Notes under the pieces: generated by a model
Databases searched by the model: none
What the model was told of the DNA's origin: nothing
What the model saw: the letters and a program-made list of their open reading frames with translations, nothing else
Source of the DNA: an uncultured bacterium
GTDB taxonomy: Bacteria; Bacillota_I; Bacilli_A; RFN20; CAG-826
DNA: 64,000 bases
Direction of reading: 5' to 3'
NCBI GenBank assembly: GCA_949296775.1
Contig: CASFQA010000004.1
Location: 3,698-67,697, forward strand
Shown here: positions 50,385 through 57,143 of the stretch, piece by piece
How the letters are laid out: each line of letters opens with the position of its first letter
Numbering within the stretch: the first letter of the stretch is position 1
Made by a program: the position numbers and the translations under genes

Positions 50385-50852
50385 TTAAACCGCCGACAAA
50401 ACGCCGGAAGAGACGATGATGATCAAAAGGAGTATCTCCACCGCAAACGTCACCCCGACGGTGATGGCACACCCTTTCTTGCAGGCTCGGTCCCCGAAGA
50501 TAAGGCATAGAATCAGCCCCAAAATACCGAGGAAGAAGCCCATCAAGAAGCCAAGGAAGCCGCCTTTTATGGCTTTGGTGGCATCGGGGTCAGCGCTTCG
50601 GTAACCGCCAGTAGGCGATTGATAATTCGCATAACCGTTTTGCTGATTGGGAGAATATCCGCAATGGGGGCAAGGGACGTTAATGTCGTCTTTATAGAAC
50701 CCGCACTTCGCACAATAGCCCGGCTGCTTAGGGGCCGAGGGCTTAGGGGCCTCGACCGCTTGCCCGCAAAGAGGGCAATAACGGTCTTCGGGGTTCAAAT
50801 GGGTCCCGCAATGGGGGCAACGGAGGTTTTCTTTATCGAGGTTATCGTTCAT
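50385..50852 (-). CDS. double zinc-ribbon membrane protein
   Basis: Two CxxC...CxxC pairs, Pro/Gln linker, two C-terminal TM helices; TATAAT 7 nt before ATG 50852. Confidence 0.75.
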   Translation of the reverse strand: MNDNLDKENLRCPHCGTHLNPEDRYCPLCGQAVEAPKPSAPKQPGYCAKCGFYKDDINVPCPHCGYSPNQQNGYANYQSPTGGYRSADPDATKAIKGGFLGFLMGFFLGILGLILCLIFGDRACKKGCAITVGVTFAVEILLLIIIVSSGVLSAV

Positions 50853-50944
50853 AGCTGGGATTATAGCCCTGCTGGTGAATTTTTCTAGAGATTCAAAGGG
50901 CTGGGCCGACAAAATTGCTGGTTTCCCGCCCCGTTATTATGGGC

Positions 50945-50953: not shown

Positions 50954-51056
50954 AAAAGGACTACCAAATATAAATATTTGGCTAAAAAATCTCCTCTTTT
51001 TGGCCAATTAAGAAAAAGCCGCCATCGTCCCTAGGTTTTTATACCGAAATTTAGCC

Positions 51057-51085
51057 TTGTAACAATACTTGTTAAAGCATATCAT
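51057..51085 (+). promoter_or_regulatory. promoter of the lipoprotein operon
   Basis: TTGTAA-17 nt-TATCAT; AAGGAGG SD downstream. Confidence 0.65.
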
Positions 51086-51125
51086 TATCGCGCTACGTTC
51101 ATGACGAAGGAGGAACGAGTCCAGT

Positions 51126-53231
51126 ATGAAGAAAACTAAACTCACCCTTGGTCTAGTCGGAGCCCTCGTGGCCGGTGGCGCCTTAGCCGCCTGCTCCGAG
51201 GTCACTTACGACGAGGGCGTGCTGCTCACTTATACGGATGCGTCCGGAAATCAAATCAAATATACCGCCGAAGACCTCTTTGGCGATTATCAGAATTCCG
51301 CCAGCTCTGCCAGCACCGCCTATTCCAAGGTAAAGGAAGTATTGATCCGCCAGTACTACCAGGAACCGGCCCAAGCCAGCAAACTCGCCGATTTGCAGAA
51401 TCAGGCTCAGAATGCCGTCGATGGCATCAAGAGCCAGGCCGAGACCAACGCCAATAGCAATGGCACCACCTATCAAGAGGAATTCGAGGCTCTCTTGGAA
51501 TCGAACAACGTCGATAACGTCGACGAATTGCTTGATTTGAAGCTTTATGAGCTCGAAGAGGAACAATTCAACAAGGATTACTACACCACCGGCAACCTCG
51601 CCAAGATGCGGGATGGCTCCTTGTGGGATGGCCTAAGGACGGCTGAGGCGGAAGCGGAATTCGGCCCGGTCAGCGATGGCTACCTCAAAACAAGGATGCC
51701 CTACCACGTCTCCCATATTTTGGTTAAGTTCGAGTCGGCTTCCAGCAACGAACACGCCCAAGCCACCATCTCGGCGACCGAGAGCGAGAAACTCGGCGAC
51801 GTCATCAAGGAGTTGGCGGGCGCCGATACCTCGGACAATACCCATGGCACCGTTAACGTTGCCCAGCGCTTAAGCTTTGGCTCGATTGCCTACGAGCTTT
51901 CCGACGACACCGAATCCTCTTCGGCCTACGGCGACCTCGGAATCATGGATCTCTCCACCGAGTTCGTCCCGGAATTCAAGCTTGGGCTTTACGCCTATGA
52001 CGCGCTTTATTCCAACCAGTCCAACAACTCCTACGCCACCGAGGAAATGAAAGGCCGGCTTTTGCCGAGCGAAGACGCCAAGCTCGACGATGGCAGCTCG
52101 GTTAAGCAGGAATTCGTCGATCGGGGCTTAGGGACCATCCCCTATGGCGCCGCCGTCGCCCTGGCCGATGCGAGCGTCTCCTACAGCGCCACCAGCGGCG
52201 AACCCGACCTCGGTTATCAAGTCAACGAGAATAGCGCCACCTATTACCCGCGCAATATCCTCTTCAACAAATACTTCAACAACCACCAAATCGCCGTCAT
52301 CACCCCGAATCGGATTTCCTATAACGATCTGCTCGATGGCGAAAGCACCTCCGGCGCCCTCTCGGGAGACGCTTACAATTTCGCCGCCGAGACCAACGCC
52401 GACGGCACCCCGAATACCACCGGCACCCTCGATGCGGATTACGCCGCCCTCCCCGGCTTCTCAGTTGACACGACCGGCGTCCTCCCGGACATCGGCAGCA
52501 ACGTCCTAACCAACGAGAAAGGCCAGATCATCCTCGCCGTCCGGGCCGGCACTTCCTCCTACCAAGGCATCCATTTCATCGTCGCCGACCGTTCGGCCCT
52601 CTCCGAATACGGCCTAAAATACGATCGGGAAAACGCCACCATCAGCGAGTACACCAAAGCTGATTACGATGCCGGGAAGACCACTTCAAACATCACTTCG
52701 CTTAATGACTACTACAGCATGTTGACCCCCGACCGCATCCCGAGCAATCCGAGCTCGGTCACCGCGGAAAACGAAGCCAACTATTATCCTTATTATGTAG
52801 TCGACGGGAAGGCCACCCCCAAGACCACTTACATCAACAAGCTGGTCTCGGCCGATTCGAGCTATGCCGATAAGGCCAAAGACGTCCAAGACGCGGTTGA
52901 GAACTTCGATTCCAACCTCGACAACTACATCTTCCAGGAATTGCTCAACAGCTCGAAGGTCACCTTCGCCGATGCCGATTTCGGGAAGCTCATTAAGGAT
53001 TACATCCGCATCACCCGTCAGAAATCCGTCGATGACACCCAAAAATCCTTCGACGATGACTGGGTCACCTACGCCGAATACCTCGAGCAGCAAGACGCCG
53101 CTAGAACGATGAAAGAGGACGGCAGCCAAAAGCTGATTTCCGAAACCTGCGCCATCGGCTATAACAGCGATGCCGCTCGGGAAGGAGACGGCGTCTGGGC
53201 TTATGGAGGAGCTTGCTACGATGGAAAATAA
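51126..53231 (+). CDS. large lipoprotein with parvulin/PrsA-like motifs
   Basis: Lipobox LAAC; SHILVKF, SFGSIAYELSDD, YGDLG, FVPEF, GIHFI. Confidence 0.8.
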   Translation: MKKTKLTLGLVGALVAGGALAACSEVTYDEGVLLTYTDASGNQIKYTAEDLFGDYQNSASSASTAYSKVKEVLIRQYYQEPAQASKLADLQNQAQNAVDGIKSQAETNANSNGTTYQEEFEALLESNNVDNVDELLDLKLYELEEEQFNKDYYTTGNLAKMRDGSLWDGLRTAEAEAEFGPVSDGYLKTRMPYHVSHILVKFESASSNEHAQATISATESEKLGDVIKELAGADTSDNTHGTVNVAQRLSFGSIAYELSDDTESSSAYGDLGIMDLSTEFVPEFKLGLYAYDALYSNQSNNSYATEEMKGRLLPSEDAKLDDGSSVKQEFVDRGLGTIPYGAAVALADASVSYSATSGEPDLGYQVNENSATYYPRNILFNKYFNNHQIAVITPNRISYNDLLDGESTSGALSGDAYNFAAETNADGTPNTTGTLDADYAALPGFSVDTTGVLPDIGSNVLTNEKGQIILAVRAGTSSYQGIHFIVADRSALSEYGLKYDRENATISEYTKADYDAGKTTSNITSLNDYYSMLTPDRIPSNPSSVTAENEANYYPYYVVDGKATPKTTYINKLVSADSSYADKAKDVQDAVENFDSNLDNYIFQELLNSSKVTFADADFGKLIKDYIRITRQKSVDDTQKSFDDDWVTYAEYLEQQDAARTMKEDGSQKLISETCAIGYNSDAAREGDGVWAYGGACYDGK

Positions 53232-54819
53232 ACTTAAAGCCTTTGCTTTGACCGCTTTCGCGGCCGCCACCCTCGGCTTGGCGTCCTGCTCCGACGTCGA
53301 AGCCGGTCTCCCCGCTGACGTTGCCGACGCCCCGATCCTCAACCTCGAGAACGTCGTCAACAACAACATGGGCCAAATCTACGATGCTTTGGTCACCGCT
53401 GGGGATTCGAATTCGGAGAAAGTCCTCAACAACATCCTCGCTCTTTATTCCAAAGGGCTCTTCGGCGAATTCTTCGGCGAAGGCGGGATGTACGAGGTCT
53501 ACACCGACAATTCCAAACTCGCCTCCTTCGTCGCCAACCACCCCATTTATGGCGAAGCGGAGAAAGGCCAAGCCAATTGCCTGGCCTTCATCAACCACGT
53601 CGTCGAGCAAATCGAAACCCAGATGTGGTCGGTCGTCGAGAATACCACCTATCAACGGCGGTCCCTCTTCTTGGAGAAGGATTTCTACCGGGCTCAGGTC
53701 GCCGAGCTCTACAAGCTCGCGACCATCGAGACCTTTAAGGAAACCGCCCTCGATGGATCGAAGGACTTCCATAACGTCGAAGATTACTTCACCAATATGT
53801 ACGTCACTTACGAAGACTATATTGAGCGGAACATCCTCCCGACCATTTACCGGAAGGCCTTAGTCGAGCAATATCTCATCGACAACAACTATGGCGTCTT
53901 GGGCCGTTCCTACGCCCGGAAAGTCCAATACATCGCCCTTCCCGATATCGATGGCGCTCAGTTTGGCGCCCAACGGTTGGTCCGTTCCTACGCCAAGCTC
54001 GTCTTGAACAAGGAAGGGGTCGATGAAAAGTACCGCGATCTCCACTTCCTCGATCAGCTCTACAAGGGCTACTTCCCCGATGCTGAGAACAACGCGGACT
54101 TCGCTTTCGCCCAAACCATCTACGCCGATGCCGGCTTCACCCCGGTTGCCGCCTCCGCCGACGACAACACCGAAGCCACCTACGAAGAGACGACTTACGG
54201 CAAGATCGCCATCGATTACAAAGGCCTCTCCGATGACCGGAACGTCACCGGTTCCTCGACCGATTTCACCAATGCCGGCGCCTATACCAAGGAAACCGGC
54301 TTGGAAATCAAGAAACGGGAAACCGTCGCCACGAGCCACGTCACCGAAGGCTGGTACACCTCGACTGGCCTAACCGACCTCGCCTCCTCGATCTCGAACC
54401 GTCTGTTCAAGATCACGGTCGCCAACGAAGTCGACCGGGAAGGGGCGGCGGAAGATAACACCAAAGGCAATTTCGGCTGGTATGTCCAAGGCTCCTACTA
54501 CATGGTCCCCGAACAATACGAACAAGAAGAGGAATTCCCCTATTGCATCTACGATAAGGACTCCTCCACTTGGTACATCGTCCGGGTCGACGAAGCGGTC
54601 AAGGCCCCGAAATTGGTCCAAGGTGGGGATGCCTCCTACGACAAGATGGAAGGCAAGAACATCTACGACATCATCTACTCGGTCGCCGGATTGGTCTCGG
54701 ATACCGAATCCTACCAAAAAGCGGCTCAGCAGCATTACGTCGAGGAAATGGCCATCGCTTATCACGATCAGACCATCTACGACTACTTCGAAACCACCTT
54801 CCCCGATTTATTCGATTAA
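53221..54819 (+). CDS. lipoprotein, probable divergent PrsA-like paralog
   Basis: Lipobox LASC; GGAGGA SD; 11-nt overlap with the upstream gene; weak parvulin-like segments (RKVQYIAL, EGWY, TWYIVRVDE) and PrsA-like C-terminus. Confidence 0.75.
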   Translation: MENKLKAFALTAFAAATLGLASCSDVEAGLPADVADAPILNLENVVNNNMGQIYDALVTAGDSNSEKVLNNILALYSKGLFGEFFGEGGMYEVYTDNSKLASFVANHPIYGEAEKGQANCLAFINHVVEQIETQMWSVVENTTYQRRSLFLEKDFYRAQVAELYKLATIETFKETALDGSKDFHNVEDYFTNMYVTYEDYIERNILPTIYRKALVEQYLIDNNYGVLGRSYARKVQYIALPDIDGAQFGAQRLVRSYAKLVLNKEGVDEKYRDLHFLDQLYKGYFPDAENNADFAFAQTIYADAGFTPVAASADDNTEATYEETTYGKIAIDYKGLSDDRNVTGSSTDFTNAGAYTKETGLEIKKRETVATSHVTEGWYTSTGLTDLASSISNRLFKITVANEVDREGAAEDNTKGNFGWYVQGSYYMVPEQYEQEEEFPYCIYDKDSSTWYIVRVDEAVKAPKLVQGGDASYDKMEGKNIYDIIYSVAGLVSDTESYQKAAQQHYVEEMAIAYHDQTIYDYFETTFPDLFD

Positions 54820-54837
54820 AGAAGGTATATAATTTAT

Positions 54838-54867
54838 GGGCAGGCCAATAGGCTTGCCCTTTTCTCT
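54838..54867 (+). terminator. terminator-like hairpin between lipoprotein 2 and the HIT gene
   Basis: GGGCAGGCC-AATA-GGCTTGCCC-TTTTCTCT. Confidence 0.65.
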
Positions 54868-54877
54868 AGGAGCGGTT

Positions 54878-55300
54878 ATGAAAGACATTTTCTGCCAGAT
54901 AATCGATGGCGACATCCCTTCTTCCAAAGTCTATGAGGACGACGACGTCCTCGCTATCCTCGACATTTCCCAAACGACCCGTGGGCATACCTTGGTCATG
55001 CCGAAGAAGCACTGCGCCAACTTCCTCGATTGCGACCGCGACTTAATGCATAAAGTATTCGACGTCGCTAGGCGGATAGGGCAGGCCGAGGTCTCGGTTT
55101 TAGGGGCGAAAGGGGTCAACATCCTTACCAATGTCGGGGAAATGGCTGGGCAAAGCGTCCCCCATTTCCACGTCCACGTCATCCCCCGTTACGCCTTAGG
55201 CGAAGGCGGCTTCCAACTGACGATGAAAAGCCAGGACACGAGCGGCATGAACCTCCCGCGCCTGGCCATGGATATCGCTTCCGCGGTCAAAAAGGACTAA
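54878..55300 (+). CDS. hit: histidine triad (HIT/HinT) nucleotide hydrolase
   Basis: DIFCQII.G.IPS.KVYED, GHTLVMPK, HFHVHVIP. Confidence 0.95.
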   Translation: MKDIFCQIIDGDIPSSKVYEDDDVLAILDISQTTRGHTLVMPKKHCANFLDCDRDLMHKVFDVARRIGQAEVSVLGAKGVNILTNVGEMAGQSVPHFHVHVIPRYALGEGGFQLTMKSQDTSGMNLPRLAMDIASAVKKD

Positions 55301-56343
55301 CCCTTAATCGCCTTCAGCTCCTCGTCGAGGCTCAAACCCGACGGCGAGGGGTTTTCTTTTACATAGGTTGGTTTATAGAAATACCGTTCATCCATCGAGA
55401 AGATCTTGGCCGTCGAATCGCCGGGAGCCACGTCGGCATAGGCCTTATCGAGAATCATCATCTTCGCGTCGATGTCATCGATCATCGAGACGATGAGCGA
55501 TTCTCTGGTCAGCGGGAGCACCGGGCTGCCGAATTCCTGCTTGCCATGGTGAGAAAGCATGATGTGTTCCATGATGACCGCCATTTCCTTTTTGGAATAA
55601 AGAGGATGGCTAGGCGTCTTCTCTTCCTCCTTCAAATCGTCGAAAGCGTAGAATCCTAGCTCGGTCGCCGCCTCTTTGACGATACCAAAGCCTAAGGAGA
55701 TATGGCCCAATAACTTTCCTTCCAAAGTGAAAGCGCAGGCCTGCGGCCCGCTTAACTCGACGGTCTTGCCGATATCATGAATCAGGGCGCCGGATAAAAC
55801 GACGTCGCGGTTAAGGCTAGGATAGACGTCGCAAACCTTGATGGCCAAATCCGCCATGGTCAAGGAGTGGAATAGCAACCCATTGACGAACTCGTGGTGG
55901 TTTCTTACCGCCCCTGGCCAAGAGAGAAACTTGCCTTCGGACTTCTCGATGACTTTCTTGGCCAACTTCTGAAGGTCAGGATCGGCGATGGAATCGACAT
56001 AGGCATTGAGCTTAGCCTCCAATTCCTCAGCCGAACGGGGTGCGCTGATAAGCAAATCATTCCATTTAACCGAGGATGGATCGACTTTTTCCCCGGTGTG
56101 GACCTTAAGCTGCAACGCTTTGTTATACATCAAGGCATCCGCCGTGACCTCAACCACTTTCCCGCGGGCGAAAAGCTCTTCATCCCCTTCCTCGACATCC
56201 CACTTTTTCGCATCGACGGTCCCGGTTTTATCCTGCAAAACCAAGGTCAAATAGTTTTTCCCTTTCCCGGAGACGCACTTCTTGCAATCGTTAATCAGGA
56301 ACCGCCCGTAAACGCGGTCCCCGTCTTTTAGGTCCTTAATCAT
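55297..56343 (-). CDS. yhaM: 3'-5' exoribonuclease YhaM (OB + HD)
   Basis: LVLQDKTG OB fold, HHEFVNGLLFHS, LIHDIGK, GHIS, SHHGKQEFGSP. Confidence 0.9.
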   Translation of the reverse strand: MIKDLKDGDRVYGRFLINDCKKCVSGKGKNYLTLVLQDKTGTVDAKKWDVEEGDEELFARGKVVEVTADALMYNKALQLKVHTGEKVDPSSVKWNDLLISAPRSAEELEAKLNAYVDSIADPDLQKLAKKVIEKSEGKFLSWPGAVRNHHEFVNGLLFHSLTMADLAIKVCDVYPSLNRDVVLSGALIHDIGKTVELSGPQACAFTLEGKLLGHISLGFGIVKEAATELGFYAFDDLKEEEKTPSHPLYSKKEMAVIMEHIMLSHHGKQEFGSPVLPLTRESLIVSMIDDIDAKMMILDKAYADVAPGDSTAKIFSMDERYFYKPTYVKENPSPSGLSLDEELKAIKG

Positions 56344-57143
56344 AGCCCTTCTTCCTCCAAAATAGATTTTATATCCTCGCTTCGGAATCCCTTCCGGGCT
56401 AAGCAAGAATATATCCTTTCCTTTAAATCATACCCTTGATATTTCCGTTCGTAACGGGCTTTCGCGCGGATGAACTCTTTTCTTAGGCTAGCCCGTTCGC
56501 CTTCGCCATCAATGGGGAAAGAGCAACCTTCTACCGCCGCTTCCGCGACCGATAAATCATAGCCCTGGTTTTGCAAGGCGGATAATAGCTTGGCTTTTTT
56601 CTGGCTTGAAGGGTACTTCGACAGTTTTTGGACTTTCGATTTGGCGAATTCCTCGGCCCGGGCCATCTCTTTTTCGCAATCAAAGGATAAGCGGGAGAGC
56701 ATAGAGGCTCCAATGCCTCTTTTCCGCAGCTCAAAGCGGATCCTTTTCTCGCCATATAAAGCCGGATAAGCCCGATACTCAAGATATTCCTCAACTAGGC
56801 GGCGATCATCGATTAAGCCCTGGGATCGCAAGCGATCGACAGTAGTTCGGATAGCCTTTTCGTCATCGCTTTTCTTAGCTAGGCGATCATAGACCTCCTT
56901 TTCTGAGAGCGATTTGGACGAAAGCCACCCGAGGGCTTGTTTATACAAAGCATCGGAATCGGCGAATTCCTTCAGCCGCCGGTATTCCTCTTCCCCGACC
57001 TTCTTCCCGAGGAAAAGATGAAAATCGGTATAAGAATCAGGGCTTAGCCAGAGGGCCGAGTCATCGGAAAAGGCAACCTCGATCCCTTTTTTGCTCGGCT
57101 TAATCGATTTTATCGAAAGCTCACCAGGATTTCTTGGCGACAC
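56340..57143 (-). CDS. recX: RecX family regulator
   Basis: AL.WLS.K..SEKEV, GLIDDRR, YGEKRIRFELRKRG, RKGF; GTG start inferred. Confidence 0.8.
   Translation of the reverse strand: MSPRNPGELSIKSIKPSKKGIEVAFSDDSALWLSPDSYTDFHLFLGKKVGEEEYRRLKEFADSDALYKQALGWLSSKSLSEKEVYDRLAKKSDDEKAIRTTVDRLRSQGLIDDRRLVEEYLEYRAYPALYGEKRIRFELRKRGIGASMLSRLSFDCEKEMARAEEFAKSKVQKLSKYPSSQKKAKLLSALQNQGYDLSVAEAAVEGCSFPIDGEGERASLRKEFIRAKARYERKYQGYDLKERIYSCLARKGFRSEDIKSILEEEGL

Follow-up and report, generated by a model that had tools for sequence, protein, structure and literature searches.

Extracellular protein folding in the wall-less, genome-reduced Bacilli was a blank before the 2024–2026 preprints on the Mdps of Mycoplasma pneumoniae, and these preprints confine PrsA-derived giant foldases to one Mycoplasma family. 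Whether such foldases have counterparts elsewhere is the question raised by a locus of an uncultured RFN20-like gut bacterium, which lies in a 64,000-nucleotide stretch of contig CASFQA010000004.1 (assembly GCA_949296775.1, positions 3,698 to 67,697; this whole stretch is referred to as the window). The locus holds two overlapping lipoprotein genes, here named P1 and P2, followed by a gene for a histidine-triad (HIT) hydrolase and by a convergent yhaM gene (Table 1). A preliminary description of the window had reported this arrangement, which the open reading frames (ORFs) bear out, and had proposed that the two lipoproteins form a duplicated, enlarged foldase and that, together with HIT, they are related to the P80, P60 and HinT proteins of Mycoplasma. 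The reading that we favor, with a probability of roughly 0.75, is that P1 and P2 are highly expressed, translationally coupled genes for oversized lipoproteins of the PrsA type, P1 being catalytic and P2 a catalytically dead partner, and that the two products associate as an enlarged foldase.

The evidence for a catalytic parvulin in P1 comes from profile searches and residue conservation. Searched against the Protein Data Bank (PDB), the P1 family profile matched parvulins only (below E = 0.5), led by PrsA1 of Listeria monocytogenes (6xd8, E = 1.2e-3) and followed by Staphylococcus aureus PrsA (2jzv, E = 2.5e-3). The PrsA model of NCBIfam was matched by 8 of 43 P1 relatives, with 5e-5 as the best value; SurA was matched by others. 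Four active-site residues are invariant in all 43 sequences, namely His197 in the segment HILVK, Asp261 and Ser264 in LSDDTESS, and His483 in GIHFIV, and these conserved residues align with the HIL... and S.D..S... motifs of PrsA. The exclusive match to parvulins and the invariance of the four catalytic residues thus substantiate the parvulin motifs that had been noticed in the first protein.

The AlphaFold2 model of P1 (predicted local distance difference test (pLDDT) 87.9; predicted template modeling score (pTM) 0.86) points the same way. In a Foldseek search of the PDB, the top 11 matches were all PrsA, SurA, YacD or parvulins, the best being 6vj4 (E = 0.03, probability 0.95). According to the secondary structure of the model, the parvulin domain is in two parts, residues 193–295 and 470–489, with an insert of ~170 aa between them; the split falls between helix 4, which ends near residue 295, and the last β hairpin (470–489). 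The model also has helical modules on either side, an N-terminal chaperone region at ~62–190 and C-terminal helices at 577–659, as well as an extra β-rich region at 497–565. The C-terminus (residues 675–701, up to window position 53231 from 53146) carries the conserved sequence SETCAIGY ... GGACY.GK with Cys675 and Cys697, the sole cysteines of P1 besides the lipid-anchor cysteine. These two residues may form a disulfide, an unusual feature where no Dsb system is known.

P2 is beyond the reach of sequence comparison, as scans and a family profile gave no match in Pfam, NCBIfam or the PDB, and its assignment comes from structure. Its AlphaFold2 model (pLDDT 83.0, pTM 0.80) was matched best by the PrsA/PpiC protein of Enterococcus faecium (9ibn_A, E = 6e-3, probability 0.99, TM-score 0.43 normalized on the target), then by PrsA of Streptococcus pneumoniae, Streptococcus mutans and Listeria, so that whole-chain PrsA proteins lead the list. 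Ranks 1–7 and 9 are PrsA, SurA, YacD or parvulins, and rank 8 is M. pneumoniae Mpn444 (9gn0). The Foldseek comparison suggested in the preliminary description hence puts PrsA/SurA foldases at the top for both proteins. An alignment of 146 diverse P2 sequences shows no conserved histidine at the sites that correspond to the parvulin ones; the second protein has, as had been claimed, a degenerate parvulin core, in that it shows the PrsA fold with catalytic histidines that are not conserved. At its C-terminus P2 carries the conserved motif YHDQ..YDYF..FPDLF. To our knowledge, neither this end nor that of P1 resembles the tails of PrsA, to which both had been likened. Direct comparison of the two families with hhalign gave a match confined to the first ~80 columns (probability 90%), the signal peptide among them, and this link was lost once the signal peptides had been trimmed. 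Under the favored reading P2 is, at the strength given above for the whole, a diverged paralogue of P1 that has the same fold and has lost the catalytic residues.

Both proteins are lipoproteins by sequence. P1 begins with MKKTKLTLGLVGALVAGGALAAC and has the lipobox context ...GGALAAC(23)SEV; P2 begins with MENKLKAFALTAFAAATLGLASC and has ...LGLASC(23)SDV. The anchoring Cys23 is invariant in the P1-family and the P2-family alignments alike, as expected of PrsA-type foldases. The mature proteins are acidic, P1 with 74.3 kDa and a pI of 4.3, and P2 with 57.6 kDa and a pI of 4.4.

The genes are also joined in expression. The P2 start codon lies within the last four codons of P1, in an 11-nt overlap with the P1 stop, and is preceded by the ribosome-binding site (RBS) GGAGGAG 9–11 nt 5′ of ATG 53221; an alternative in-frame start at ATG 53170 (549 aa) is less likely. 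The extreme C-ending codon bias noted earlier for both genes is confirmed by codon usage over ~50 window ORFs, where the third-position C fraction is 0.53 in P1 and in P2, one other ORF is as high (0.54), and most are at ~0.31–0.43. In the window and five related loci, P1 and P2 overlap or abut in 6/6 cases, and neither gene was found without its partner in the loci examined. These data support translational coupling of P1 and P2, constant pairing, and a codon bias like that of highly expressed genes. Together, the coupling, the strict co-occurrence and the common extreme bias suggest that the two proteins are made abundantly and in equimolar amounts.

The same observations bear on the idea that P1 and P2 act independently, with P1 as a stand-alone foldase, P2 as a PrsA-shaped protein with some other job, and their pairing as a product of tandem duplication. 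P2 could then be a dedicated chaperone for one enzyme, as in the model of Bacillus subtilis YacD with YrvJ, or a binding protein. That P2 is without any catalytic residues and cannot be recognized from the P1 sequence outside the N-terminus is in keeping with this idea, and the YacD–YrvJ model (9a7d) is among the Foldseek matches of both proteins. However, the overlap or abutment of the genes in every locus and their equally extreme codon bias fit equimolar co-production, and no examined locus has one gene alone. We therefore consider independent action improbable and retain the coupled pair.

The match of P2 to Mpn444 raises the question of how the pair relates to the Mdps. Mdp436, Mdp444 and Mdp489 of M. 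pneumoniae are remote PrsA homologues, giant lipoproteins that form a dome over SecYEG, and only Mdp444 keeps the catalytic residues (bioRxiv 10.1101/2025.04.25.650208). Peptidyl-prolyl isomerase activity in vitro was reported for Mpn444 and Mpn436, and the parvulin domain of Mpn444 was described as split (aa 230–237, 279–352 and 471–504; 10.1101/2024.09.05.611430). P1 and P2 might accordingly be an unfused counterpart of the Mdp halves, with P1 as the N-terminal SurA-plus-parvulin unit and P2 as the second unit, for which retention of catalytic residues is not reported, placed over the Sec translocon. The cryo-EM structure 9gn0 in the P2 list (E = 0.03), the insert in the Mpn444 parvulin domain at the same place as that of P1, the parallel of a single catalytic Mdp, and the combined mass of mature P1 and P2 (132 kDa) are compatible with such a scheme. 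Yet P1 and P2 show no sequence similarity to the Mpn444 or Mpn436 chains in the PDB and no DUF3713 match, the 9gn0 match to P2 has a probability of 0.44, and 9gn0 is absent from the 50 P1 matches listed. The shared insertion site could be convergent, and the Mdp authors ascribe the architecture to internal duplication, not gene fusion (10.1101/2025.04.25.650208). We regard this scheme as tentative and rather unlikely.

P1 and P2 belong to large families that are covered by no curated Pfam or NCBIfam family, both libraries having been scanned. A word-indexed search yielded 573 significant clusters at 90% identity for P1 and 145 for P2, and with the P2 profile HMMER found, in a full scan, 319 representative clusters (50% identity), of which 206 have E-values below 1e-30. 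Among the matches listed, full-length P2-family members have 500–700 aa, each with a lipoprotein-type signal at its start. All P2-family members are from uncultured gut Bacilli; where a source name is given, always from metagenome-assembled genomes, it is one of "Bacilli bacterium", "Candidatus Enteromonas", "Tenericutes bacterium" and "Erysipelotrichaceae bacterium". These results support the view that P1/P2 is an enlarged PrsA foldase encoded by two genes, widespread and so far unannotated. Since pairs of a catalytic and a dead PrsA-like protein are widespread in gut Bacilli, the enlarged hetero-oligomeric PrsA design appears to be wider, and probably older, than Mycoplasma.

Several points weigh against an enlarged PrsA-type pair. 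P1 scored below threshold against the Pfam Rotamase model (E = 0.05, 15 bits, cut-off 21.7). The Foldseek E-values are modest (0.006–0.03), with TM-scores of at most 0.43 on the target, and both proteins exceed PrsA two- to threefold in size and carry inserts of unrecognized fold. In addition, the comparison loci are all of one lineage and are syntenic across the entire neighborhood. The modest fold statistics can be explained by size, the templates all being two to three times smaller, and the ceiling of 0.43 by the inserts. Thus, for the duplicated, enlarged foldase first proposed, the PrsA/SurA-like nature of both proteins, with one site intact and one degenerate, has held up, and the heteromer is what we infer from it.

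PrsA is a dimer in which unfolded clients are cradled by helical modules, and on this model the following mechanism can be suggested. P1 and P2 would sit on the outer face of the membrane. P1, as judged from its model, may be the catalytic subunit, combining a SurA/trigger-factor-like helical chaperone module with a parvulin prolyl isomerase, while P2 is probably a chaperone-only or scaffold partner. By likeness to PrsA homodimers, the two would associate as a heteromer, an enlarged cradle that might take up unfolded proteins and lipoproteins as they leave the Sec channel and aid their folding. In such a cradle P1 would contribute prolyl isomerase activity, and P1 and P2 would both contribute chaperone surface. 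M. pneumoniae offers a published precedent, with lipoprotein foldases of PrsA origin that are hetero-oligomeric and have a single catalytic subunit (10.1101/2025.04.25.650208; 10.1101/2024.09.05.611430). The likely clients are Sec-exported proteins and the organism's many lipoproteins, and the enlarged pair may take the place of an ordinary 30-kDa PrsA.

Does the HIT protein belong to this assembly as a third subunit? A GC-rich, terminator-like hairpin with a fold energy of −18.6 kcal/mol, followed by a U tract, lies between the P2 stop and the HIT RBS, and the same site holds a GC-rich hairpin with a U tract in each of the four related loci that were folded (L001, L002, L021 and L022). The stem sequences differ among them. 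Because the stems misalign, folding the five terminator regions as a consensus gave no useful structure, and individual folds were used. Stems that keep their structure but not their sequence are the hallmark of a functional terminator or attenuator. The longest HIT ORF (54836–55300, 154 aa) would cross the hairpin with its first 14 codons, for which reason the true start is probably the ATG at 54878 (MKDIF..., 140 aa), which has the RBS AGGAG and lies 18 nt from the hairpin. The third-position C fraction of HIT is 0.47, a weaker bias than that of P1 and P2, and fits expression by read-through at a lower level, which is probably how HIT is produced if termination occurs. As the hairpin divides P2 from HIT, we take HIT for a conserved neighbor and not for a tightly coupled third cistron; under the favored reading of the pair it is likely to be carried along by read-through at most, and not to be a stoichiometric subunit.

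The neighborhood of HIT is conserved all the same. Five related loci with 38–45% protein identity share the order suf operon, P1, P2, HIT, followed on the opposite strand by yhaM, recX and a GT4 glycosyltransferase gene, with an LPG-synthase-like gene next in the two loci that reach that far. The adjacency of HIT and yhaM is present in 5/5 related loci; loss of the HIT adjacency had been named beforehand as a possible refutation of the preliminary proposal, and the adjacency is kept throughout. It is not specific evidence of functional coupling, because the whole 12-kb neighborhood is syntenic. The YhaM-like product scores 301 bits against NCBIfam NF010007 (E = 8.6e-90, cut-off 460) and has the Pfam HD and tRNA_anti-codon OB-fold domains. 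The stops of HIT and yhaM overlap by 4 nt (55297–55300), leaving no space for terminators; the gap is 34–122 nt in the related loci. In B. subtilis, yhaM, prsA and hinT presumably lie within about ten genes of each other; we found no citable statement in the literature of a prsA/hit/yhaM adjacency in that species. If this order is right, the locus would be the ancestral prsA region of the Bacilli with prsA duplicated and enlarged.

A partner for HIT is suggested by work on chlamydiae. In Chlamydia pneumoniae, HinT (Cp266) and an OB/HD hydrolase (Cp265) interact in yeast two-hybrid and co-precipitation assays (Hopfe et al. 2005, PMC1173108). Given that chlamydial HinT binds the neighboring YhaM-like hydrolase, a partnership of HIT with YhaM is no less plausible in the window than one with the lipoproteins.

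Gene order also recalls hitA (P80), hitB (P60) and hitL (HinT), which are known in Mycoplasma hominis, M. pulmonis, M. mobile, M. mycoides and Mesoplasma (Hopfe et al., PMC1173108). By this alternative, P1 and P2 would be orthologues or an ancestral form of P80 and P60, and the latter would be PrsA-derived foldases working with HinT. An M. hominis-type locus, L013, was recovered from the metagenome collection by means of the back-translated P60 CS2 motif; in the species-genome collection, neither the CS1 motif of P60, back-translated, nor a 24-nt primer published for reverse-transcription PCR in M. pulmonis found a match. The CS1 peptide occurs exactly in a metagenome-derived M. hominis-type contig, and such genomes may be absent or masked in the species-genome collection. 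L013 encodes P80 (713 aa), P60 (582 aa) and HinT (106 aa), which score 645, 375 and 143 bits with the NCBIfam models P80_membrane, P60_lipo and M_plasma_HinT, respectively. The P80 alignment comprised 14 sequences and the P60 alignment seven, including those of six further Metamycoplasma loci. In most of the Metamycoplasma hit loci with enough upstream sequence, namely L013 (1–3869), L015–L017 and L019, P80 is preceded by genes for a ~2790-aa FtsX-domain permease and an ABC ATPase and by a small divergent gene of ~250 aa, so that membrane machinery is a conserved neighbor of P80/P60; L020 has the ATPase only.

Order and sizes agree between the two systems (701/532 aa and then HIT vs 713/582/106 aa). 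The HIT protein of the window is 40% identical to the M. hominis-type HinT, and among the NCBIfam models it scores best with that of Mycoplasma HinT (NF045834, 100 bits, below the cut-off of 130 bits). The hhalign matches are weak and collinear, P1 with the N-terminal 126 columns of P80 (P = 0.004) and P2 with the last 44 columns of P60 (P = 0.0014). The published ranges are complementary, Mdps being found in Mycoplasmoidaceae only and hitAB-type loci in the hominis and mycoides groups and Mesoplasma; Ureaplasma is reported to lack the catalytic Mdp and to have a P60 homologue. Against these resemblances, the models NF045833 (P80_membrane, threshold 150 bits) and NF045835 (P60_lipo, 140 bits) gave 0 matches at E ≤ 10 among 43 P1-family and 44 P2-family members, and HMMER profiles of P1, P2 and an extended set of 173 P2 sequences scored about zero on the 14 P80 and seven P60 sequences. 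The hhalign scores of 35–37 are barely above those of reversed-alignment controls (up to 30), which themselves reach P = 0.01. After trimming of the signal peptides, the best forward P-values were 0.03–0.04 and that of P1 vs P80 went from 0.004 to 0.044, no better than the reversed controls. The CS1 region of P60 gave P = 0.75 with P2, and searches of Pfam and the PDB with profiles of the P80 and P60 families turned up neither a parvulin nor a SurA signal. This null result is weak evidence, because trimmed hhalign fails on P1 vs P2 too, although both fold like PrsA. The homology to P80/P60 put forward in the preliminary description is therefore not demonstrated, nothing in NCBIfam, HMMER or hhalign rising above reversed controls in a test that is underpowered, as it also misses the P1–P2 relation.

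Topology and gene spacing tell against a common complex with HIT. P80 has a transmembrane signal anchor and a charged cytoplasmic tail without a lipobox, with the family consensus MS.K.KK..TTEQKAKRKKILWG.FWGTA.SAAVAAGI at its N-terminus; as far as the sequence indicates, this charged tail and transmembrane helix could be the part that cytoplasmic HinT contacts. P1 has a short lipoprotein-type signal that is removed by signal peptidase II. In Mycoplasma, HinT starts 1–2 nt after the P60 stop or overlaps it, whereas the window has the terminator-like hairpin there. With the hairpin present in five loci and mature P1 and P2 devoid of a cytoplasmic segment, the three-protein complex with HIT that had been envisaged is not supported, and the terminator and the membrane topology weaken the notion of an ancestor of P80/P60 acting in a HIT complex. 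We found no paper tying P60 or P80 to PrsA, and syn3 locus tags gave no text matches. In sum, we hold orthology of P1/P2 with P80/P60 to be doubtful.

A broader synthesis would make the P1–P2 pair a living intermediate that ties ordinary PrsA to the fused Mdp dome foldases of the M. pneumoniae group and to P80/P60 of the hominis and mycoides groups, the latter being the extracellular, Sec-associated folding machine of the mycoplasmas without Mdps, with HinT as a neighbor inherited from the ancestral prsA–hit–yhaM region of the Bacilli. We think this quite unlikely as a whole. If it were true, the P80/P60 surface complex would gain a function through PrsA-type kinship with the P1 and P2 folds.

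Table 1 Features of the P1–P2 locus, in window coordinates
Feature	Coordinates	Strand	Description
Double zinc ribbon protein	50385–50912	−	175 aa; Pfam DZR 1.1e-8; C-terminal hydrophobic segment
Putative sigma-70-type promoter of the P1–P2 bicistron	51057..51085	+	TTGTAA, 17 nt, TATCAT; promoter scan
P1	51126..53231	+	701-aa lipoprotein; lipobox LAAC at C23 after signal peptide
P2	53221..54819	+	532-aa lipoprotein from ATG 53221; lipobox LASC at C23
Intrinsic-terminator-like hairpin	54838..54867	+	GGGCAGGCC-AATA-GGCTTGCCC, then TTTTCTCT; terminator scan
HIT/HinT-type histidine-triad nucleotide hydrolase	54878..55300	+	Pfam HIT 5e-27; motif HFHVHVIPR
YhaM-like 3′-5′ exoribonuclease	55297..56406	−	OB fold and HD domain; convergent with HIT

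The putative promoter and the leader that follows it (51057–51125) are strongly kept in L001, L002, L021 and L022 despite ~45% protein identity. The five aligned upstream regions share the blocks TTGTAA, TAT(C/G)AT, CGCTACGTTCA and AGGAGGAACGAGT. A palindrome, TAACAA-N3-TTGTTA (51060–51074), covers part of the −35 hexamer and the spacer. L001 has another palindrome, TAAGAG-N3-CTCTTA, at the equivalent spot; both of its arms are changed, which is odd for a protein-binding site. An 18-bp palindrome, CCAAATAT-AA-ATATTTGG, lies at 50964–50981, in the gap that separates P1 from the divergent zinc-ribbon gene. The zinc-ribbon gene itself sits between the suf operon and P1, divergent from P1, and is probably lineage-specific, because the intergenic spacing of the related loci has no room for such a gene.

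Compared with known systems, the locus shares with the chlamydial hit locus a HIT gene adjoining a YhaM-like OB-fold/HD hydrolase gene, but the chlamydial genes are co-directional and without lipoproteins, whereas HIT and yhaM of the window are convergent. With M. hominis hitABL (Hopfe et al. 2004, 2005) it shares the order of a large surface protein, a smaller lipoprotein and a HIT hydrolase, at similar sizes (the HIT protein here having 140 aa against 106); P80, unlike P1, has a signal anchor or a signal peptidase I signal, P1 being a lipoprotein without a cytoplasmic part, and neither P1 and P80 nor P2 and P60 show significant sequence or profile similarity. The Mdp proteins are likewise very large PrsA-derived lipoproteins that combine one catalytic and other non-catalytic PrsA-like units, with a parvulin domain interrupted at the same position as in P1 and a weak fold match of 9gn0 to P2. 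They differ in having two PrsA-like units in chains of >1000 aa, where P1 and P2 are separate genes that hold one unit each, as judged from secondary structure and Foldseek alignment to whole PrsA chains. They also bear the DUF3713 signature (IPR022186), absent from P1 and P2 in a Pfam scan; their association with the Sec translocon is shown, that of P1/P2 being our inference; and they are reported in Mycoplasmoidaceae only, P1 and P2 being in gut Bacilli.

Closest in kind are the PrsA proteins of Bacillota (B. subtilis PrsA; Listeria PrsA1/2; S. pneumoniae 5tvl; E. faecium PpiC 9ibn; Bacillus anthracis 6vj4), even though sequence similarity to P1 and P2 is at or below family thresholds. They are single-gene products of ~280–330 aa that form homodimers, while P1 and P2 are 2.4 and 1.8 times larger, the P1 parvulin domain is split by the ~170-aa insert, extra regions of unrecognized fold are present, and two diverged, coupled paralogues, one of them catalytically dead, stand where there is one gene. 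In Bacillales, prsA presumably adjoins hit and yhaM, as P1 and P2 do here. Common to both are the lipobox cysteine anchor, the SurA/trigger-factor-like helical module around the parvulin domain, and the parvulin His/Asp/Ser/His residues, which are kept in P1.

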